This document shows positions 205-30,656 of a DNA stretch of 55,386 nt, piece by piece. The translations under genes were made by a program, and so were the position numbers. Each line of letters opens with the position of its first letter. The first letter of the stretch is position 1. The stretch is from Azospirillum sp. 51_20 (lineage in GTDB: Bacteria; Verrucomicrobiota; Kiritimatiellia; RFP12; UBA1067). The stretch is from the NCBI GenBank assembly GCA_963600185.1, contig CAVCAF010000001.1:1-55386 (forward strand), written 5' to 3'. The notes beneath the pieces are model-generated. The model made no database searches. It was not told where the DNA came from and saw nothing but the letters and a program-made list of their open reading frames with translations.

Positions 205-1599
205 ATGAAACTTATGCGAAGGTTGTTTCTAGGTCTAGTCGTCACGAGCTGTGTCGCGCTCAGTGGCTGTTTCTCGGTGGATTCCGCCGCGGCAGAAGCG
301 CGCAAGGCTCTTTTACAGGGCGATATGCCGCGCGTTTGTGCGTGGGCGGAGGAACTGGCGACAAACAGCTCCTACTCTGCCGCGCTTGGGTATGTGGAAG
401 CGGGGCGTGCACGCTTTCTCGCAGGCGACTTCGCCGCGAGTGAGAGTTGGTTTCGCCGCGCCATAGATTCAAGTGTGAAGCGCAGTGAGAGCGGTCCGCG
501 TATCAATCTGACGGATGTTGGGAATACGGCACTCGCGGCGACGGTGACGGATGACCGTACGCGGCAGTATACGCTCGGTGCTTATGAACTGAACTTAGCC
601 CTTCAGTATGGCATTCTCGCCGAGGTGCTGAATAACAAGTATGAAGAGGCCCTCGTTGATTCGCGTCTCGCCATTTATGTGCAAGATACGCTCGCGGAAA
701 AGTTAGGCGGCGACCTCGTCGCGCCTTCCTCCAGCACCAACCAATCGGAACTCGCCGCGCAAAATATCTGCGAAGGACAGGACGCGGCACTGGACGACCT
801 CATAGCGGGGACGCGTAATTCGTGGGAGAATCCTGTCCTTTGGTGGCTGACGGGCATTCTTTTTGAGACGAATGGCGAACTTGACTTCGCGCAACAATCT
901 TACCGCAAGGCGCACGCGATTCGTCCCGAGAACACCTTATTTGCCGCGGACGCCGCGCGGTTCGCCGTGGGCAAGCCCCAACAGCGGTTACCGAAGAAGG
1001 GCAAGGCACGGATAGTCGTCCTTTATGATGCGGGGCTTGTGCCGATGAGGGAGTCGCTCAAGGTGCCCGTCCCCATTTACACAGGCATGGCGATAGACAT
1101 CCCTGTTTATCGTGAAAAGCGCACGACTTACGGGACGCTTCAGGTGGATGGCAGCCAAGGTTCGCTGGGACTTGACGTGACGGCCCTCGCCGCACGCGAC
1201 TTAAAGGAGCAGTTGCCGGGTATTGTCACGCGCAATGTGACGCGCGCGGCAGTGCAGGCTGCCGCCCAAGCCGCCGTTAATAATGCGGGCAATGAGTACG
1301 CCCAAATTGGTGTCTTCGCGGCAAATGCCATTATCTCGGCTCTTCGCCGTGCCGATACGCGCTCGTGGTTGACGCTGCCTGCCCAGACACAAGTCGCCAC
1401 AGTTGAGGATATCACGCCAGGCGCATACGCGCTTAAACTTACGACGGTGCACGGCGTAACGACTTTTGAATGCACCTTAAAGGCGGACGAAACGCGGCTA
1501 ATTTATGTCGCGGATGTTGCGCGTGGTGCGCGGCTTGCTTCCTGTTCACTGGGAGCTACCGCTAATAACACTGTCTTTGAGAATCACGAAGGCTATTAA
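205..1599 (+). CDS. putative lipoprotein of unknown function
   Basis: I trimmed ORF 124..1599 to the ATG at 205. The N-terminus MKLMRRLFLGLVVTSCVALSGC is a signal peptide plus lipobox (LSG|C). It is co-oriented with, and adjacent to, the LpoB-like lipoprotein gene. Confidence 0.6.
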   Translation: MKLMRRLFLGLVVTSCVALSGCFSVDSAAAEARKALLQGDMPRVCAWAEELATNSSYSAALGYVEAGRARFLAGDFAASESWFRRAIDSSVKRSESGPRINLTDVGNTALAATVTDDRTRQYTLGAYELNLALQYGILAEVLNNKYEEALVDSRLAIYVQDTLAEKLGGDLVAPSSSTNQSELAAQNICEGQDAALDDLIAGTRNSWENPVLWWLTGILFETNGELDFAQQSYRKAHAIRPENTLFAADAARFAVGKPQQRLPKKGKARIVVLYDAGLVPMRESLKVPVPIYTGMAIDIPVYREKRTTYGTLQVDGSQGSLGLDVTALAARDLKEQLPGIVTRNVTRAAVQAAAQAAVNNAGNEYAQIGVFAANAIISALRRADTRSWLTLPAQTQVATVEDITPGAYALKLTTVHGVTTFECTLKADETRLIYVADVARGARLASCSLGATANNTVFENHEGY

Positions 1600-23101: not shown

Positions 23102-24108
23102 TATACGACGCTTTTACATTCTTTAATGAATTAGACTTACTGGAGATTCGGCTTAATACGCTCGCCTCCGTAGTTGATAAGTTCGTAATAGCCGAAGCGA
23201 CGCGCACCCACCGCGGCAAACCCAAGCAACTTTTGTTTGAAGCTAACAAATCGCGCTTTAGTGCGTTTCTTCCGAAGATTATCTACATTAAGGTAGACGA
23301 TCTACTCTCAGAAGAAGAGATAAATAAAGACCCCTATAATCTTGCTTGGGTGAATGAGAATCGTCAGCGGAATGCCCTTAAGCGTGGTTTAATAGAGGCG
23401 CGCGCGAATGATATAATTTTGCTGTCCGATTTGGATGAGATACCGCGCCCCGAAATAGTTGCGCAATTGGAGTCCGTCCTTGATGGAAGTACACGCGGCG
23501 TACGGTTTAGGATGTCCGCTTATTACTATTATCTAAACTATCTTAATTATACAAAACCCGTTTGGGAAATGGGCACATTTGCCGCGCGCTACAGGGTGTT
23601 TGGCGATAATGCCTATCTCAGCCGAACACTTATGGGGCGCTTCACACCTGAGTCTGAAAATCGCGGCGCTACTATGCAACGGCTCCGCTTTATGCCTGCG
23701 GATAGGGACTTGCCGCACGCGGGTTGGCATTTCTCGTACTTGGGAGGCATAGAGGCGATTGAGAATAAATTGCGGTCTTTCTCACATTCTGAGTTTAGTG
23801 CGATACCGCGTCCTGTTTTAGAGCAAAGTATCCGTAAGGGGCGCGATCCATTTGGACGCGGGGAGATGTTTTTTGGCGAGGTGATAGACGATAGCTTCCC
23901 ACGGTATGTGAGAGAAAATCAAGATAAACTTGCCGCCTTAATTTTTAAGGTGGACGCGGACTATCTCGCGCGGACAGCATTCCCGCGGCGGATAGCGAAG
24001 TTAAGGGGGCGCTTGCATACTTTTCTTGTGCGTATAATCCCACAAAAGTGGGTGCCGTCAATATTGCGTGTGCGCGAAGCCTTGCTTAAAAAGTTAGGTA
24101 GGCTATGA
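23098..24108 (+). CDS. glycosyltransferase family 17-like (GnT-III-like) protein
   Basis: The N-terminus MIYDAFTFFNELDLLEIRLNTL...VDKFVIAEATRTH..KPK and the SDLDEIP motif are typical of bacterial GT17 homologues. Confidence 0.75.
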   Translation: MIYDAFTFFNELDLLEIRLNTLASVVDKFVIAEATRTHRGKPKQLLFEANKSRFSAFLPKIIYIKVDDLLSEEEINKDPYNLAWVNENRQRNALKRGLIEARANDIILLSDLDEIPRPEIVAQLESVLDGSTRGVRFRMSAYYYYLNYLNYTKPVWEMGTFAARYRVFGDNAYLSRTLMGRFTPESENRGATMQRLRFMPADRDLPHAGWHFSYLGGIEAIENKLRSFSHSEFSAIPRPVLEQSIRKGRDPFGRGEMFFGEVIDDSFPRYVRENQDKLAALIFKVDADYLARTAFPRRIAKLRGRLHTFLVRIIPQKWVPSILRVREALLKKLGRL

Positions 24109-25394
24109 CCCCAAGTTGCCATAGACCTGTTAAGGAGCGGATGACGCGGCGGTGTCCGTCACATGATTATTCGGTGCGCGGCGTTTATATGATTACGACC
24201 CAGCTCGCGGTGCGGGAGCCGAAGTTGGGTACGCTTGAGCCGATTCCGTGCGGGGAATGGTGCGTGAGGCCGAGTGCGCTTGGCTGGAAGGTTCTTGCTT
24301 GCTGGGAGGCTATCCCTAAACACTGGCCGCAGGTTAAACTTATTGCCCACCAACTCATGCCTGACCACTTTCATGGGCTTTTATTTGTGAAGGAAGATTT
24401 ACCAATCGTCTCGGGACGGCAGAAGGTACTTGGGGATATCATGCGCGGCTTTAAGGCGGGGTGCCGCGAAGTTGGTTGGCAGGCGGGCTTTACGGACTCC
24501 CTCCTCAAGCGCGAAGGGCAACTCGCACAACTCAGGCGCTACATCGCCGATAATCCGCGGCGGTTAGCCGAGAAGCGGCGACATAAGGCGTATTTTAAGG
24601 TCGTAGAAGATTTGGCAATAGAGTTGGGCGGGGGCGTATGCGGTTTGTTTGCGGGGCTCGGGAATGCCGCGCTCGCGAATAAAGTGCCGCGGGTTTATGT
24701 GCAGTGTTCGCGCAAGGACTTCGCATATAAACATACGCGCCTTGAGAGTGGCAATTGGCGCATTGAGCGCAACGAGAAAGGCGCGGCACTTGTTGACTTT
24801 GAAACGCCTACTTTTAAAGAGAAAGCGGCGCAGTTTTTAGAAGCTGTAAAGAAGGGCGCGGTGCTGGTGAGCCCCTGTATCTCGCATGGCGAGAAAGAAA
24901 TCATACGCCGCGCATTTGAGGCGGGCGGTAGTGTAATTTGTCTGCGAAATAAGGGTTTTGGTAAACTAGAGAAACCCATGGGCAAGATGTTTGACCTCTG
25001 TGCCTCGGGGCGACTCTTATTGCTCGCGCCAAAGAATTGGCTCTATACAATGAGTAAAAAGCCAATAAGCCGCGAAGACGCGCTTGTATTAAATACGCTC
25101 ACCCAATTACTCGCGGACAGTGAGGTCGTGGTTAATTATAAGGGTCGGGTACCCAATGGGCTTGGGGCTTTGTGTGCCCAAGCGGTAGATAGCCCTATGT
25201 TAGAGGCGATAATAAATAGCGCCATTTCTGGCGCTAAACCTAACGCCCCCACACCGCCAAGTGACCTGCCCCGCGTATCGCCGCCGTTAACTCAAGCTCA
25301 AACGCGCGTAAACGAGGCTAAAGCCCCGCCCCACCCCCGTGTTGTGCCGTTAGGTTCTGCCGCGGAAACGCGGCAGTTAGGAGCCTTCGTATGA
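24105..25394 (+). CDS. RayT/IS200-like (COG1943, HUH Y1-transposase fold) domain protein with an approx 260-aa C-terminal extension
   Basis: LMPDHFHGLLFV is the HUH motif, alongside WQAGFTDSLL and RRYIADNPRRL. The C-terminal part (GAVLVSPCISHGEKEIIRRAFEAGGSVICLRNKGFG) looks DprA/SLOG-Rossmann-like by eye. The last approx 20 codons run through a REP-like hairpin. Confidence 0.65.
   Translation: MTPSCHRPVKERMTRRCPSHDYSVRGVYMITTQLAVREPKLGTLEPIPCGEWCVRPSALGWKVLACWEAIPKHWPQVKLIAHQLMPDHFHGLLFVKEDLPIVSGRQKVLGDIMRGFKAGCREVGWQAGFTDSLLKREGQLAQLRRYIADNPRRLAEKRRHKAYFKVVEDLAIELGGGVCGLFAGLGNAALANKVPRVYVQCSRKDFAYKHTRLESGNWRIERNEKGAALVDFETPTFKEKAAQFLEAVKKGAVLVSPCISHGEKEIIRRAFEAGGSVICLRNKGFGKLEKPMGKMFDLCASGRLLLLAPKNWLYTMSKKPISREDALVLNTLTQLLADSEVVVNYKGRVPNGLGALCAQAVDSPMLEAIINSAISGAKPNAPTPPSDLPRVSPPLTQAQTRVNEAKAPPHPRVVPLGSAAETRQLGAFV
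25313..25379. repeat. REP-like repeat copy A (CGAGGCTAAAG ... GTGCCGTTAGGTTCTGCCGCGGAAACGCGGCAGTTA)
   Basis: The hairpin CTGCCGCG-GAAA-CGCGGCAG lies at 25357-25376. It is near-identical to 28006-28041. Confidence 0.85.
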
Positions 25395-26953: not shown

Positions 26954-27831
26954 TTTCTAAGAAAAACCTTGTCTACGAAGTGGGCAACGCCTTGCGCACC
27001 AAACACCTTGCGCGAGGTATTCATGATATGCCGTATTAAGCGCATAATAAACGCCATAGCGAAATACCCAAGTTTCGCGAGCGGGAGGGGATATTTACCC
27101 GCCGTAATCGAATAGCCCTGCGCTGTTATAGAATAGGAGAGCGCGGTCTCTAGAAGCCCCGCGAGCCCAAAGTCGACATGCGCAATCTTAGGCGTGACTT
27201 CTAGAAAGTCGTCCCATGTGAAGCGGGCGACAAACGGCTTAAGAAGTGCCGCGCGAACCATGAAGATTGTGCCCGCGACGGAAACTAGAGCCCGCGGCGT
27301 AAGCCCAAGCGACCGCAATAAATTACAGGCTGAAGTTTTACTTTCTAGGCAAAAGTCGCTACTCGCGTAGTTAATAAAGCAGCTGGAAGCGAGGAGCCCA
27401 AGTTTGGGGTGGCGCGTAAATGCCGCGAGGGATTCGCGCACTTTCTCGGGTGACGCACAAAACGCGAGGAGCTTTCGCCGCCATTCGTTGCCGTGAACTG
27501 GACGGAATCCGATAATGCCGTCCACATCGCGCTTCGTGTGCAACTTGACGATGTAGTCGTAATTCTCAAGAGGGCCTTTGTTCAGAACTTCGCAGACGAA
27601 CGCGCCGACATCGTATCCGCGATTAGGTGTCTCAATTATCTTGACAGCGGGATAGGGCAACAACTTCGGTAAAAGCGCGGCAAACTCAGGCTTTACGGTA
27701 GGATATGTCGCGATAATCGAAACACGCTCCGCGCCGCAAACTTCGATGAAGTTGCGGCAACACTCCGCAATCTCGGGGGCGATTTCCGGATAGAAGAAGT
27801 GAGCATGTATAAGTACGCGGCAATCTCTCAT
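26950..27831 (-). CDS. RgpF (rhamnan synthesis protein F)-like polysaccharide glycosyltransferase
   Basis: LIHAHFFYPEI...PNRGYDVGAF...KLHTKR motifs are present. Confidence 0.6.
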   Translation of the reverse strand: MRDCRVLIHAHFFYPEIAPEIAECCRNFIEVCGAERVSIIATYPTVKPEFAALLPKLLPYPAVKIIETPNRGYDVGAFVCEVLNKGPLENYDYIVKLHTKRDVDGIIGFRPVHGNEWRRKLLAFCASPEKVRESLAAFTRHPKLGLLASSCFINYASSDFCLESKTSACNLLRSLGLTPRALVSVAGTIFMVRAALLKPFVARFTWDDFLEVTPKIAHVDFGLAGLLETALSYSITAQGYSITAGKYPLPLAKLGYFAMAFIMRLIRHIMNTSRKVFGAQGVAHFVDKVFLRK

Positions 27832-27838
27832 TGCGGAT

Positions 27839-27847
27839 ATTATACCA
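27839..27847 (-). promoter_or_regulatory. extended -10 promoter TGGTATAAT (minus strand), leaderless configuration
   Basis: The reverse complement of 27839-27847 is TGGTATAAT. Only 7 nt (ATCCGCA) separate the hexamer from the ATG at 27831. Confidence 0.6.
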
Positions 27848-27926
27848 AAACTCGCCCCACGATACCATACGCGATTTTATTCGCCACGCTTTGGGCGACG
27901 TTAACTTTAACCCCAATGCGAGTTGC

Positions 27927-28041
27927 CGAGGCTAAAGTAGTGCCCTTACCTAGTGTAGTGCCGTTAGGTTCTGCTGCGTTTGAAGTTGCGACCTTACCCA
28001 GTGTCGCACCGTTAGGTTCTGCCGCGGAAACGCGGCAGTTA
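27927..28041. repeat. REP-like repeat copy B (two sub-units, the second carrying the hairpin)
   Basis: CGAGGCTAAAG lies at 27927. CCTTACC(T/C)AGTGT.G..CCGTTAGGTTCTGC occurs twice, about 46 nt apart. The hairpin CTGCCGCGGAAACGCGGCAG lies at 28019-28038. Confidence 0.85.
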
Positions 28042-28069
28042 AGGGCCTGCTTAAGGCGCGTGAGAGTAA

Positions 28070-28143
28070 GTAGAAGGGGGTGGCGCTCTTACTGGGAGAG
28101 GCACCCCCTCTTGCGTAGGAGGGGGTGGCAGTTCTACTGGGAC
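28070..28143. repeat. 45-nt tandem duplication (GTAG(A/G)AGGGGGTGGC..T.CT.ACTGGGA)
   Basis: The units start at 28070 and 28115. Confidence 0.8.
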
Positions 28144-28331
28144 GGGTACCCGCTCGCGCCGTCTTTCGCGTCATCTTGGGCTACTTTCCAAAACCTTGTC
28201 AAGTTTTTTTTAAAACTTTTTTCACCTGTGATGGGTAGAAAATGGCACTTAGCCATCTTCGCGTTTTTCGCACCCAAACTCACTGCGGAATTCGCGTCCA
28301 AACCGCGGCACTTACCGCGGCAGATTGGCAA

Positions 28332-28400
28332 GGGGCGGGGAAGGGTGGCAAAAGTGGGGGTTTTGGGGTGGCTAAAAACCCGATTTTGGGTGTTTTGGGG
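28332..28400 (+). other. G-run cluster with T4G4-like units (potential G-quadruplex)
   Basis: GGGG-C-GGGG-AA-GGG ... GGGGGTTTTGGGG ... GATTTTGGG-TGTTTTGGGGG. Confidence 0.6.
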
Positions 28401-28699
28401 GTGCGGAGAGGTGTCCGTCGGCGAGATCAAGATTTAAAATGCCATAATCGGTGACTAGGAGGCTCGTATTGCGCTTGGAAGGGTTCGGATGTGGGAGGAT
28501 ACACCCCAAAGCGAGGAGCCCCTAAAATCGAAAATTTTCGGGGTGTCTGGCGATTAGGCATTTTGGACGGATTTCGTCCGCGGCAAAATCGCGGCATTTC
28601 CGCGGCGTTTTGGAGGCTAAAAACCGTGCTTTTGGCAGTCAGGTTTCGGGCAAGTAAGCTAATAGCCCCAACTGTCCAACTGTAAAAATAACTAAAAAA

Positions 28700-28938
28700 A
28701 TGCTGTGTGCGTGTGTTTTGTGTGGGGCTGTTAGGCTGTTAACTGTTAAAAAACAACAAAAAATGGCTGTGTGTGTTGTTTTTGTGGATGCTTGGGTGTT
28801 TGTCGTAGGTGAAAGGAAGGTTAGTTTCTCGTTTTCGTTTTCGCTCGGCTAGGGGGTGAGGGGGGTCACAACAACACACACACAACATAAGTGTCGTTTT
28901 GGACAACAACAGTTGGACAAAACACACGCACACAACAT
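28700..28938. repeat. long imperfect inverted repeat, GT-rich arm and CA-rich arm
   Basis: TGTGTGCGTGTGTTTTGT (28705-28722) is exactly complementary to ACAAAACACACGCACACA (28917-28934). CTGTGTGTGTTGTTTTTGTGG (28767-28787) roughly matches CACAACAACACACACACAAC (28867-28886). Confidence 0.85.
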
Positions 28939-29050
28939 TTCTTTCTATTTCTTTTTTATTTTCTTCTTCTTGCTTTCTCTTTAAAGGGGTCTGGGGGAAC
29001 CTTTCTCTTTCATTCGTCTTCTTTGTTTTTTTCTTTTTCTTTCTTGCCCT
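28939..29050 (+). repeat. approx 110-nt polypyrimidine (CT-rich) low-complexity tract
   Basis: TTTCTTTCTATTTCTTTTTTATTTTCTTCTTCTTGCTTTCTCTTT ... CTTTCTCTTTCATTCGTCTTCTTTGTTTTTTTCTTTTTCTTTCTTGCCCTC. Confidence 0.85.
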
Positions 29051-29295
29051 CAAAAAGCGTCTTCTCTAGCCCCTCCAGAGTGCTCGCCTCGGGGTCGCTT
29101 GGGGTGGCTTTGGGGATTCAGAAGGGTGGCTTAGGGTGCCTTCGGGCGGGCGCGGCGATTTCCGCGGCGAACCTTTTGGGTAGCGTTAAGGGGTGAAAAA
29201 GGGTGCTCCAAAAAAAGTTTTAGGGGCTTCAAAAATTGGCGTTTGGAAACTTAAAATGAAAAATGCAGTTGCCGAAAATTAGTTGAAAAATCCTA

Positions 29296-29325
29296 TTGAC
29301 CCGGCACACCGAAATATGGTATAAT
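29296..29325 (+). promoter_or_regulatory. tRNA-Val promoter (TTGACC-N18-TATAAT, TATGGTATAAT) with upstream A-tract region
   Basis: The -35 lies at 29296-29301 and the -10 at 29320-29325. Multiple A5-7 tracts lie between 29196 and 29290. Confidence 0.75.
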
Positions 29326-29341
29326 ATTCGCCAATTAGCAA

Positions 29342-29418
29342 GGGCTATTAGCTCAGTTGGTTAGAGCGCTTCCTTGACATGGAAGAGGTCAGTAGTTCGA
29401 ATCTACTATAGCCCACCA
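29342..29418 (+). tRNA. tRNA-Val (anticodon GAC), CCA encoded
   Basis: The cloverleaf was folded by hand. The acceptor stem is GGGCTAT/ATAGCCC, the D-arm is GCTC-AGTTGGTTA-GAGC, the anticodon stem is CTTCC/GGAAG with loop TTGACAT, and the T-arm is AGTAG-TTCGAAT-CTACT. Confidence 0.92.
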
Positions 29419-29654: not shown

Positions 29655-30656
29655 ATGAAAAAGGCGACAAGATTCCGTGCGGTCGTCCTCGCGGGCGGCA
29701 GTGGCGAGCGGTTTTGGCCGCTTTCGACGAAAGAGAAGCCCAAGCAATTTTTGAATGTGTTTGGGGGCGTGAGTCTTTTGCGTCAGAGTGTGACGCGGCT
29801 AGAGAAGTTGGCGACGCCTGAGGGACTCTATGTCATCACGGCGAAGGATCTCGTAGGGTTAACGCGCAAGGAGCTCCCCGAAGTGCCACCGCGGCAGATT
29901 GTGGGCGAGCCGTTCCGTCGTGATACGGGAGCTGCGATTGCACTGGGGACGGGACTTGCGGGCGCGGCAAATGATGATGTCATCGGCTTTTTCGCGAGCG
30001 ACCATCTTATCCGTAATGAGCATGCCTTTCTCGCGACAGTCAAAAAGGCGATTCGCCTCGCCGCGGCAAAAGAGAAGATTGTCGTTATTGGGATACCCCC
30101 AACATGGGGATCGCCTGCGTTTGGGTATGTGGACCCAAAGACGGGTGCATTCGTTGAGAAGCCCGACGCGAAGAAGGCGAAGCAATATTTAAAGAAGGGC
30201 TACTTGTGGAATGCGGGGCTTTTCATTGCGCGTGCAAGCGTCTTTCGTGCCGCGATCGCGGCGTATGCGCCCGCGTTGAAGCCTTTAACGGAAAGTGCCG
30301 CGTTTTCTGCTGCACGCCTCGCGCGACTGTATGAGCCGTTGCCGCGGATTTCGTTTGATTATGCGGTGATGGAGAAGTCCGTTAATGTCGCGGTTATTCG
30401 TGGGGACTTCGGCTGGGACGATGTGGGCGGCTTTCAGGCGTTCGATCGCTACTTCCCGCACGACAAGAAGGGCAACGTGCGCGAGGGGCCTTGCCGCGTC
30501 GTTTCCTCGGCGGGGAATATTTGCGTCGTGAGAGGGGCGCCCATTTCGCTTTTGGGAGTCTCCAATCTCGTCGTCATAACAACGCCCCAAGGCGTGCTCG
30601 TCGCGAATAAGCGTCACCTCTCGGATATGAAGAAACTCTTTCAGACGACCTCGTAA
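29655..30656 (+). CDS. mannose-1-phosphate guanylyltransferase (nucleotidyltransferase domain only)
   Basis: AVVLAGGSGERFWPLS is the N-terminal signature, and FASDH and WNAGLF motifs are present. At 333 aa it has no PMI/cupin domain. Confidence 0.8.
   Translation: MKKATRFRAVVLAGGSGERFWPLSTKEKPKQFLNVFGGVSLLRQSVTRLEKLATPEGLYVITAKDLVGLTRKELPEVPPRQIVGEPFRRDTGAAIALGTGLAGAANDDVIGFFASDHLIRNEHAFLATVKKAIRLAAAKEKIVVIGIPPTWGSPAFGYVDPKTGAFVEKPDAKKAKQYLKKGYLWNAGLFIARASVFRAAIAAYAPALKPLTESAAFSAARLARLYEPLPRISFDYAVMEKSVNVAVIRGDFGWDDVGGFQAFDRYFPHDKKGNVREGPCRVVSSAGNICVVRGAPISLLGVSNLVVITTPQGVLVANKRHLSDMKKLFQTTS

Follow-up and report, generated by a model that had tools for sequence, protein, structure and literature searches.

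What a long GT-rich/CA-rich hairpin directly followed by a pyrimidine tract is doing in a bacterial chromosome is the question raised by one locus of contig CAVCAF010000001.1 (assembly GCA_963600185.1, Azospirillum sp. 51_20), of which positions 1 to 55,386 were analysed; this whole 55,386-nt stretch is referred to as the window. Hairpin and tract lie in a 1.5-kb stretch without credible genes, and the genome searched along with them (1.99 Mb in 203 contigs, 89.6% complete) is labelled G000. As far as can be judged from sequence, they are best read as the variable central cassette of a 1.1-kb repeat element, with a make-up resembling the cis-acting portion of iteron-type origins in phages and mobile islands. 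We put at roughly 55% the probability that this cassette is of the origin-of-replication type, located inside the 1.1-kb element without an initiator gene and with a mirror-symmetric tract in the role of the AT-rich unwinding region of phage lambda.

The locus had come to attention through a sequence-only reading, in which a 110-nt polypyrimidine tract was described. Such a tract is present directly 3' of the hairpin, but it is not continuous, since two arms of ~45-50 nt are split by a purine-rich core at 28983-28999. Together, these parts form a homopyrimidine/homopurine mirror repeat of ~112 nt:

28939-28982, plus strand: left pyrimidine arm, with 3 purines in 44 nt; its first 18 nt double as the outer end of the hairpin stem.
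28983-28999, plus strand: conserved mirror core AAAGGGG-TCT-GGGGGAA (AAAGGGGTCTGGGGGAA), with the axis TCT at 28990-28992.
29000-29050, plus strand: right pyrimidine arm, with 4 purines in 51 nt.

The arms mirror each other about this axis at 45 of 51 aligned positions. The mirror score of the window tract was 67. Shuffling of its letters gave 20 ± 3.7, and 0/2000 shuffles reached 67. The signal kept its significance after removal of the core together with 12 nt to either side of it, and it lay above that of a direct-order comparison of the arms. An ungapped mirror scan of the whole genome was swamped by Gly-codon repeats and runs of N and was uninformative.

A homopurine-homopyrimidine mirror repeat is the standard sequence requirement for H-DNA (PMC11667243). 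The window tract shows both the strand asymmetry, evident from the purine counts of its arms (3/44 and 4/51), and the mirror symmetry of this motif. The potential for H-DNA or triplex formation that had been attributed to the tract is supported more strongly than was argued at the time, the tract being a true mirror repeat whose symmetry is kept in related copies. Template switching yields reverse complements, and we know of no replication or repair process that generates mirror copies; hence, a symmetry of such length points to selection for a fold-back triplex, which the window tract may form. With the purine blocks AAAGGGG and GGGGGAA mirrored on either side of the axis, an alternate-strand triplex could extend almost to the TCT loop. 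The pyrimidine strand of the core also contains 5'-CTG-3' and 5'-GGGTC-3', which we take to be the recognition words of E. coli DnaG and T7 primase, and the G runs flanking them would presumably hold a C-rich primer tightly.

The hairpin 5' of the tract was resolved by repeat search, unit alignment and folding into four units of ~40 nt:

28683-28956: nested GT-rich/CA-rich inverted repeat (long hairpin or cruciform), composed of the four units below.
28683-28724: unit L1, direct.
28747-28788: unit L2, direct.
28865-28900: unit R1, inverted.
28915-28956: unit R2, inverted.

Each unit consists of an A-rich leader and ATG(C/T)TGTGTG(C/T)GTGTGTTTTGTG, with the two direct copies on the left and the two inverted ones on the right. 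The outer arms (28694-28721 and 28917-28944) are 28 nt long and 93% complementary with 195 nt between them, and the inner arms (28768-28780 and 28870-28882) are 13 nt long and 100% complementary with 89 nt between them. The long inverted repeat that had been noticed in the sequence-only reading was confirmed in this nested form, its perfect 18-nt core, formed by 28704-28721 with 28917-28934, having been placed one base off. Folding, which had been put forward as a check on the hairpin, was compared with 200 dinucleotide shuffles per test. RNA parameters gave -89.3 kcal/mol (z -5.7) for the plus strand and -77.6 (z -7.4) for the minus strand, and DNA parameters gave -47.0 (z -4.65) and -41.6 (z -4.60), respectively. 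Both strands folded far better than the controls (z -4.6 to -7.4), and in each test, 0/200 shuffles were as good. A BLAST search of the genome with 27832-29341 returned no further copy of the GT/CA arms or of the tract; neighbouring REP-like hairpins alone recurred. An inverted repeat of a style like that of the window hairpin, GT-rich/CA-rich and long, (GGTNGTTGGT)n ... (ACCAACNAAC)n, was seen directly upstream of a gene in another genome (G193:C84; L055 ~730-930, minus strand), but without a mirror tract.

On the far side of the tract, a third component follows:

29092-29146, plus strand: four iteron-like repeats GGGTGGCTTNGGG of 10-13 nt, with start-to-start spacings of 10, 22 and 10 nt.

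These repeats begin ~40 nt beyond the T-rich purine/pyrimidine mirror tract, and their spacing may be a helical one. They are short and G-rich, and the arrays of the relatives L087, G284 and G104 described below are far more distinct. Read along the minus strand, the order in the window is four GGGTGGCTT-type repeats (29146-29092), the purine mirror tract and the hairpin.

The same layout, namely a hairpin, next a mirror tract centred on a G-run/TCT/G-run core and then short helically spaced repeats, was found to recur elsewhere. Using the core with short pyrimidine flanks as the search pattern, matches were obtained in 5 of the 319 genomes of the order (G000, G034, G016, G284 and G104) and in none of the ~355 genomes searched elsewhere in the phylum, implying that the pattern is specific and its distribution patchy. 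Cores with G runs of 4-7 were present in a second copy in the host genome, on contig C91, in G034 (three full sites), and in G016, G284 and G104. In IMG/VR, bona fide copies were located in five phage contigs that differ widely in their G+C content (L081, L085, L086, L087 and L090). The pattern matches in L079, L080, L088, L089 and G193 were discarded as G-run/C-run hairpins that do not represent the mirror motif.

Genome G034, which belongs to the same order but to another family, was spotted via a low-complexity match and carries a GT/CA hairpin followed by a pyrimidine mirror tract around AAAAGGGGGTCTGGGGGGAA. Two of its copies lie on C61 as the arms of a ~300-nt inverted repeat, one lies on C113 and one at the contig end of C7. 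On C61 (38600-39500; L010 1380-2280), the two cassettes are arranged around a 400-nt centre in the intergenic space of divergent genes. Three different arrays, in which repeats recur with a period of 11-16 nt, flank this inverted repeat, which might be an invertible segment.

Outside the stretch that the search pattern itself prescribes, mirror symmetry continued in the window, the C91 copy, three G034 copies and L081, where 0-1 of 2000 shuffles reached the score and the direct-order control was lower. The identity between the two arms of one copy was 0.72-0.93, compared with 0.54-0.78 between unrelated copies, the exception being the paralogous pair on C61 of G034 with 0.88. By our reading of the printed arms, the left and right members of this pair differ as CTTTCTTCC versus CTTCTTCC, each copy carrying its own variant in both of its arms. 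Repeat arrays adjoin the motif on the same side as in the window in L081, L087, L090 and G284, and on the hairpin side in G104.

The genes around these relatives connect the motif with replication. In L087, the motif and seven repeats (11/22-nt phasing) lie inside an open reading frame (ORF) matching phrog_345, "replication initiation O-like" (1.7e-12). In L081, the motif and 33-nt-phased repeats are contained in a DUF6291 ORF whose immediate downstream neighbour is a DnaC-like loader (4.3e-26), RecT also being close by, and in L086, the ORF containing the motif is located immediately upstream of DnaB (1.7e-107). The motif of L085 is found ~1.2 kb from a helicase-primase block, in the gap before the terminase gene, and the ORF enclosing that of L090 has a DnaA_N match at sub-threshold level only. 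An integrated island in G104 shows the order integrase, excisionase-like gene, 232-aa ORF, four iterons (at 21-22 nt), motif, YoeB toxin gene and type I restriction-modification genes. On C113 of G034, the motif lies downstream of an ORF weakly matching replication-initiation and primosomal PHROGs, and in G284, at least eight TGTGACGCT repeats at 12 nt stand beside it. The label of a eukaryote-like microsatellite that had been given to the locus is not the best one, as the relatives associate the motif with replication regions that bear iterons and belong to phages and mobile islands.

Where the core falls into coding sequence, it is read in two different frames among five ORFs, as PPDP or as SPQTP, which indicates that the constraint acts on the DNA and not on the peptide. 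Selection on a protein linker was rejected on this ground and on that of the non-coding copies, which also possess the core. In the phages, translation of the origin-like repeats and the mirror tract yields low-complexity linkers within the putative initiators, such as NSELNNADSELKEELNKTNSEL and KEKEKKQEKESFPPDPLYKEKEIKKEKE; the ORFs bearing such linkers are L081:2012-2782, L087:1394-2683, L086:675-1385, L090:8039-9286 and L065:949-1866.

In the host genome, the cassette is part of a larger repeat:

28167-29274, plus strand: non-coding repeat element of ~1.1 kb, with a 5' block (28167-28234), a middle block (28403-28624) and a 3' block (29198-29274).

Searches with nhmmer profiles of the three blocks and with BLAST revealed exactly three copies of the element in the genome:

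Window, 28167-29274, plus strand: in the gap between the glycan-gene island and tRNA-Val; order 5' block, middle block, cassette, 3' block; cassette with hairpin and mirror tract.
C21, 15932-16942, plus strand: after a ribosomal-protein operon; order 5' block, cassette, middle block, 3' block; cassette with CCAACTGT/ACAGTTGG octamers in palindromic blocks.
C91, 3015-2286, minus strand: before a type I methylase gene; order 5' block, cassette, middle block, 3' block; cassette with a small hairpin and a second mirror tract.

The mirror tract of the C91 copy differs from that of the window in its arm sequence and is inverted relative to the ends of the element. Outside the three blocks, the copies have diverged beyond alignment. 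Comparison of the three copies by tblastx revealed no preferred frame, from which conservation at the nucleotide level follows. Coding potential was rejected on the same basis; a 104-aa ORF on the minus strand over the tract is of low complexity and not conserved, and the reading frames are broken on both strands. The conserved blocks were absent from the public genome, metagenome and viral collections searched with a pattern of the 5' block, which returned chance hits, none of them with the middle or 3' block. A DNA search of 40 relatives with the whole element yielded no homologue, a 26-nt match in a coding region of G010 being judged as chance.

Inside the conserved 3' block, one further site was noted:

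29228-29257, plus strand: weak promoter-like site TTCAAA-18-TAAAAT, facing tRNA-Val and manC; its function is putative.

According to the alignment, the TAAAAT hexamer is retained in all three element copies. In each of them, the site faces the downstream gene, namely tRNA-Val/manC, an unnamed ORF and hsdM.

The C21 cassette is of a different make. Between 16117 and 16500 (L008 ~1680-2060), it contains dozens of CCAACTGT and ACAGTTGG octamers, which make up large palindromic blocks around a ACACACACACAC centre; the window holds two CCAACTGT at 28669-28684 and one ACAGTTGG at 28910-28917. At C21:15845 and 16944, that is, within ~90 nt of the start of the C21 element and at its very end, TTATCCACG occurs within CACGGATT repeats, one mismatch from the DnaA-box consensus. 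An inverted pair similar to these sites was seen at C23:4757-5164.

The anatomy described above, the mirror symmetry with its conservation and the association with replication modules elsewhere are observed; origin activity and a role in this chromosome are putative, and the following course is proposed. An initiator protein would bind the short repeats, and the resulting negative superhelical stress would be absorbed by the mirror tract, the presumed counterpart of the AT-rich region beside the iterons of the lambda origin. The tract would then flip to an intramolecular triplex, or melt otherwise, and single strands would become accessible to helicase loading and priming. A role of the hairpin could be to stabilise this opened state or to serve on single-stranded DNA. 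As no initiator gene is attached to it, the window copy would be either an orphan origin needing an initiator in trans or a fairly recent relic.

Several observations weigh against this origin reading. No initiator-type gene was found beside the window copy or in the assembled, 89.6%-complete genome. The one weak match to phrog_345 in the genome, a 366-aa protein, was set aside, reading by eye (no family search was made) like a Fic-type enzyme with a helix-turn-helix, and DUF6291 was not found in the assembled genome. The neighbours are ordinary chromosomal genes, and the C21 copy follows a ribosomal-protein operon. That copy is also without a mirror tract in the sequence read and without a match to the core pattern, carrying CCAACTGT arrays instead. 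The window "iterons" are only four short G-rich repeats, the word GGGTGGC occurring in another repeat family of the genome as well, and the window mirror (45/51) falls short of the mirrors in G034 and L081 (39/41 to 45/48), as would be in line with decay. What links the motif to replication is the set of genes next to it in five phage contigs and in two or three islands, and the triplex is deduced from sequence alone. The window element is devoid of DnaA boxes, which together with a cumulative GC skew showing no turn also led us to reject an interpretation of the locus as oriC.

An extension of the origin reading, which we hold to be a rather long shot, is that gene-less copies of phage-type origins are kept because they act in trans when a phage or island supplies the initiator, either as decoys that soak up the initiator or by local firing. 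In the latter case, surface-glycan genes (window) or restriction-modification genes (C91) could be amplified during infection. A laboratory analogue of the decoy exists in plasmids with the oop gene and ori-lambda iterons, which block lambda replication (PMC3349717). A search for the CCAACTGT iteron word of C21 lent the decoy idea no support, as it forms no arrays in IMG/VR contigs.

Four rival explanations were considered, ranked as a dead relic, a non-autonomous element resembling a miniature inverted-repeat transposable element (MITE), an RNA and a contingency locus. The main one, which we nevertheless regard as improbable, is that the cassette stems from a phage or island replication region and now lies functionless in repeat-rich intergenic DNA, the element having spread by duplication or recombination. 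The lack of an initiator gene, the broken frames on both strands, the imperfection of the window mirror relative to G034 or L081, the other repeat families filling the surrounding 1.5 kb and the patchiness of the motif (5/319 genomes) would all be in keeping with a dead relic. Yet the arms still match at 45/51 positions over ~50 nt, whereas neutral drift would erode them equally with the rest of the element, the copies of which can no longer be aligned outside the three blocks. Moreover, two independent copies (window and C91) are both mirror-symmetric with differing arm sequences.

It is unlikely that hairpin and tracts are instead the transposition or recombination parts of a MITE-like element, perhaps tied to the nearby RayT-like gene and without any replication signal. 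Three dispersed copies with conserved ends are present, these ends are weakly similar to each other in inverted orientation (TAAAACTTTTTT at 28211-28222 versus AAAAAAGTTTTA at 29211-29222, for example), and a RayT/IS200-like ORF (24105-25394) lies 3 kb upstream, with REP hairpins around. On the other hand, no target-site duplication was seen at the three junctions by our reading, the copies number only three, and the position and orientation of the cassette vary within the element. Phages and islands share the cassette but lack the conserved blocks of the element, and REP elements are hairpins of 20-40 nt, unlike that of the window.

A structured non-coding RNA, made up of a long imperfect stem and a U/C-rich tail, is very unlikely. 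In its favour are the strength of the predicted fold, the non-coding nature of the conserved blocks and the direction of all three copies, which is that of the downstream gene. However, apart from tRNA-Val, no Rfam 15 match was obtained at the gathering threshold or even at E<=1, and neither an upstream promoter nor a terminator bracketing the hairpin-tract region was found. The fold of the minus strand is as significant as that of the plus strand, the cassette of the C91 copy is inverted, so that both orientations relative to the element ends occur, and the phage motif lies inside protein-coding genes on the opposite strand. Mirror symmetry, furthermore, provides no Watson-Crick pairing and would be meaningless for such folding. 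The "very unusual RNA" that had been suggested is disfavoured by these findings.

Hardly credible, finally, is a contingency or hypermutable locus switching the neighbouring surface-glycan genes by tract-length slippage or structure-induced recombination. Low-complexity GT/CA and C/T runs are present, a glycan-gene island is adjacent, and in public short-read assemblies of the same species, the contigs stop at either edge of the region. However, the tracts do not have the form of simple tandem repeats; they consist of mirrored irregular arms that slippage cannot produce, and the region does not lie between a promoter and the start codon of glycan genes. Neither functional suggestion of the sequence-only reading, a contingency or recombination element and an unusual RNA, was supported.

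The wider surroundings of the cassette in the window are defined by three genes:

Ending at 27831, minus strand: RgpF-type gene, the upstream flank of the gene-poor stretch.
29342-29418: tRNA-Val(GAC), the downstream flank and the sole Rfam match in the region.
Starting at 29655: manC, the next gene beyond tRNA-Val.

The glycan-gene island adjoins this locus. An exact look-up of the flanking proteins led to one public assembly (SRR13434617), the contigs of which end at the edges of the region, so that no second version of the locus is available. The order manC-truA-mraY-like is kept across the genus; since the upstream side differs in every species and has no tRNA-Val, no empty site can be reconstructed.

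Around the cassette, ~1.5 kb are crowded with other repeat families. The RayT-like ORF at 24105-25394 (429 aa) displays the IS200/RayT-type motifs PDHFHGLLF and RRYIADNPRRL, with no Pfam match at E<=0.01. A REP-like repeat, encountered again at 27997-28048, overlaps the 3' end of this ORF. At 28070-28155, a hairpin repeat of 41 nt, GTAGAAGGGGGTGGC...GGCACCCCCTC, stands twice in tandem; it belongs to a second dispersed family, also seen on C119, C91, C3, C54, C134, C184 and C43. A separate family of nested inverted repeats, with arms of short periodic words such as CGCAGAG(N)CGCAGAG and GATTTACAAGATT, is apparently another dispersed palindromic element of the genome; it was seen at C91:1693-2004, C142:3786-3999, C147:1031-1224, C2:34984-35271, C29:1337-1674, C60:76-209, C62:4316-4440 and C127:4746-4875. 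Homopolymers of C or G, from 13 to ~35 nt long and several of them at contig ends, were observed at C3:12658-12700, C116:1-46, C177:1-63, C164:1989-2029 and L008 2757-2770, and one (C13) lies within the start of the ORF downstream of the C21 element. The long homopolymers could be phase-variable tracts or assembly artefacts.

Concerning novelty, iteron origins and H-DNA motifs are both well known, and the literature searched contained no account of a conserved mirror element of the G-run/TCT/G-run type in origins. No use of GGGGTCTGGGG in the present sense and no paper joining origin, iterons, polypurine and bacteriophage were retrieved. Whether H-DNA has a selected cellular function is an old open question, and for bacterial triplex motifs, discussion has centred on the instability that they cause. 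A concrete, testable case is offered by a long mirror repeat that has a conserved core, lies beside iterons in unrelated phage and island replication modules and has arms that change together. If the origin reading is true, the motif would make origins of uncultured phages and mobile elements recognisable by their sequence and would raise the question of what initiator-less origin cassettes do in a host chromosome. If the copies indeed act in trans, the mirrored changes in the arms would be the first evolutionary evidence for triplex DNA as a selected working part of prokaryotic origins.

Among known systems, the REP/REPIN repeats with RayT are present in the same 1.5-kb region and in the same genome, but the GT/CA repeat is single-copy in the genome and ten times the length of a REP and is not a member of that family. 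The prokaryotic intrastrand triplex motifs (ITxF database; TM_ECO; Holder et al. 2015, PMC4666352) are likewise triplex-prone repeats, abundant and conserved in bacteria; they consist, however, of three successive blocks, the stems being 6-15 nt and the loops 1-6 nt long, whereas the present motif is a two-arm duplex mirror with arms of 40-50 nt. With H-DNA motifs (PMC11667243), the window tract shares its composition (92-93% pyrimidine), the mirror over ~50 nt per arm and the short central spacer. The known motifs are mostly from eukaryotic promoters, introns and rDNA and are viewed as sources of instability, while the motif described here is bacterial or phage-borne and tied to replication modules, its symmetry being maintained across diverged copies.

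The iteron plasmid origins of RK2, F and pPS10 (PMC4081077) have helically phased short repeats beside a region that must melt, with the specificity for the initiator in variable repeats next to a generic melting region, an arrangement that the cassette may share. They differ from it in that the window copy has no adjoining Rep gene and no DnaA boxes and that its putative melting region is a purine/pyrimidine mirror. With the lambda-type origin, the likeness is that the motif of L087, L081 and L086 lies inside an initiator-type ORF just upstream of a helicase or loader gene, the same arrangement as that of ori-lambda inside gene O. Phased repeats adjoin the motif in L087 and L081, the repeats coming first in gene direction where both were mapped, and the minus strand of the window keeps the order of repeats, tract and hairpin. 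Unlike in lambda, the window copy lies in a non-coding chromosomal repeat without a surrounding initiator gene, and in place of a plain AT-rich stretch, the part presumed to unwind is a homopurine/homopyrimidine mirror repeat with a G-run/TCT/G-run core.

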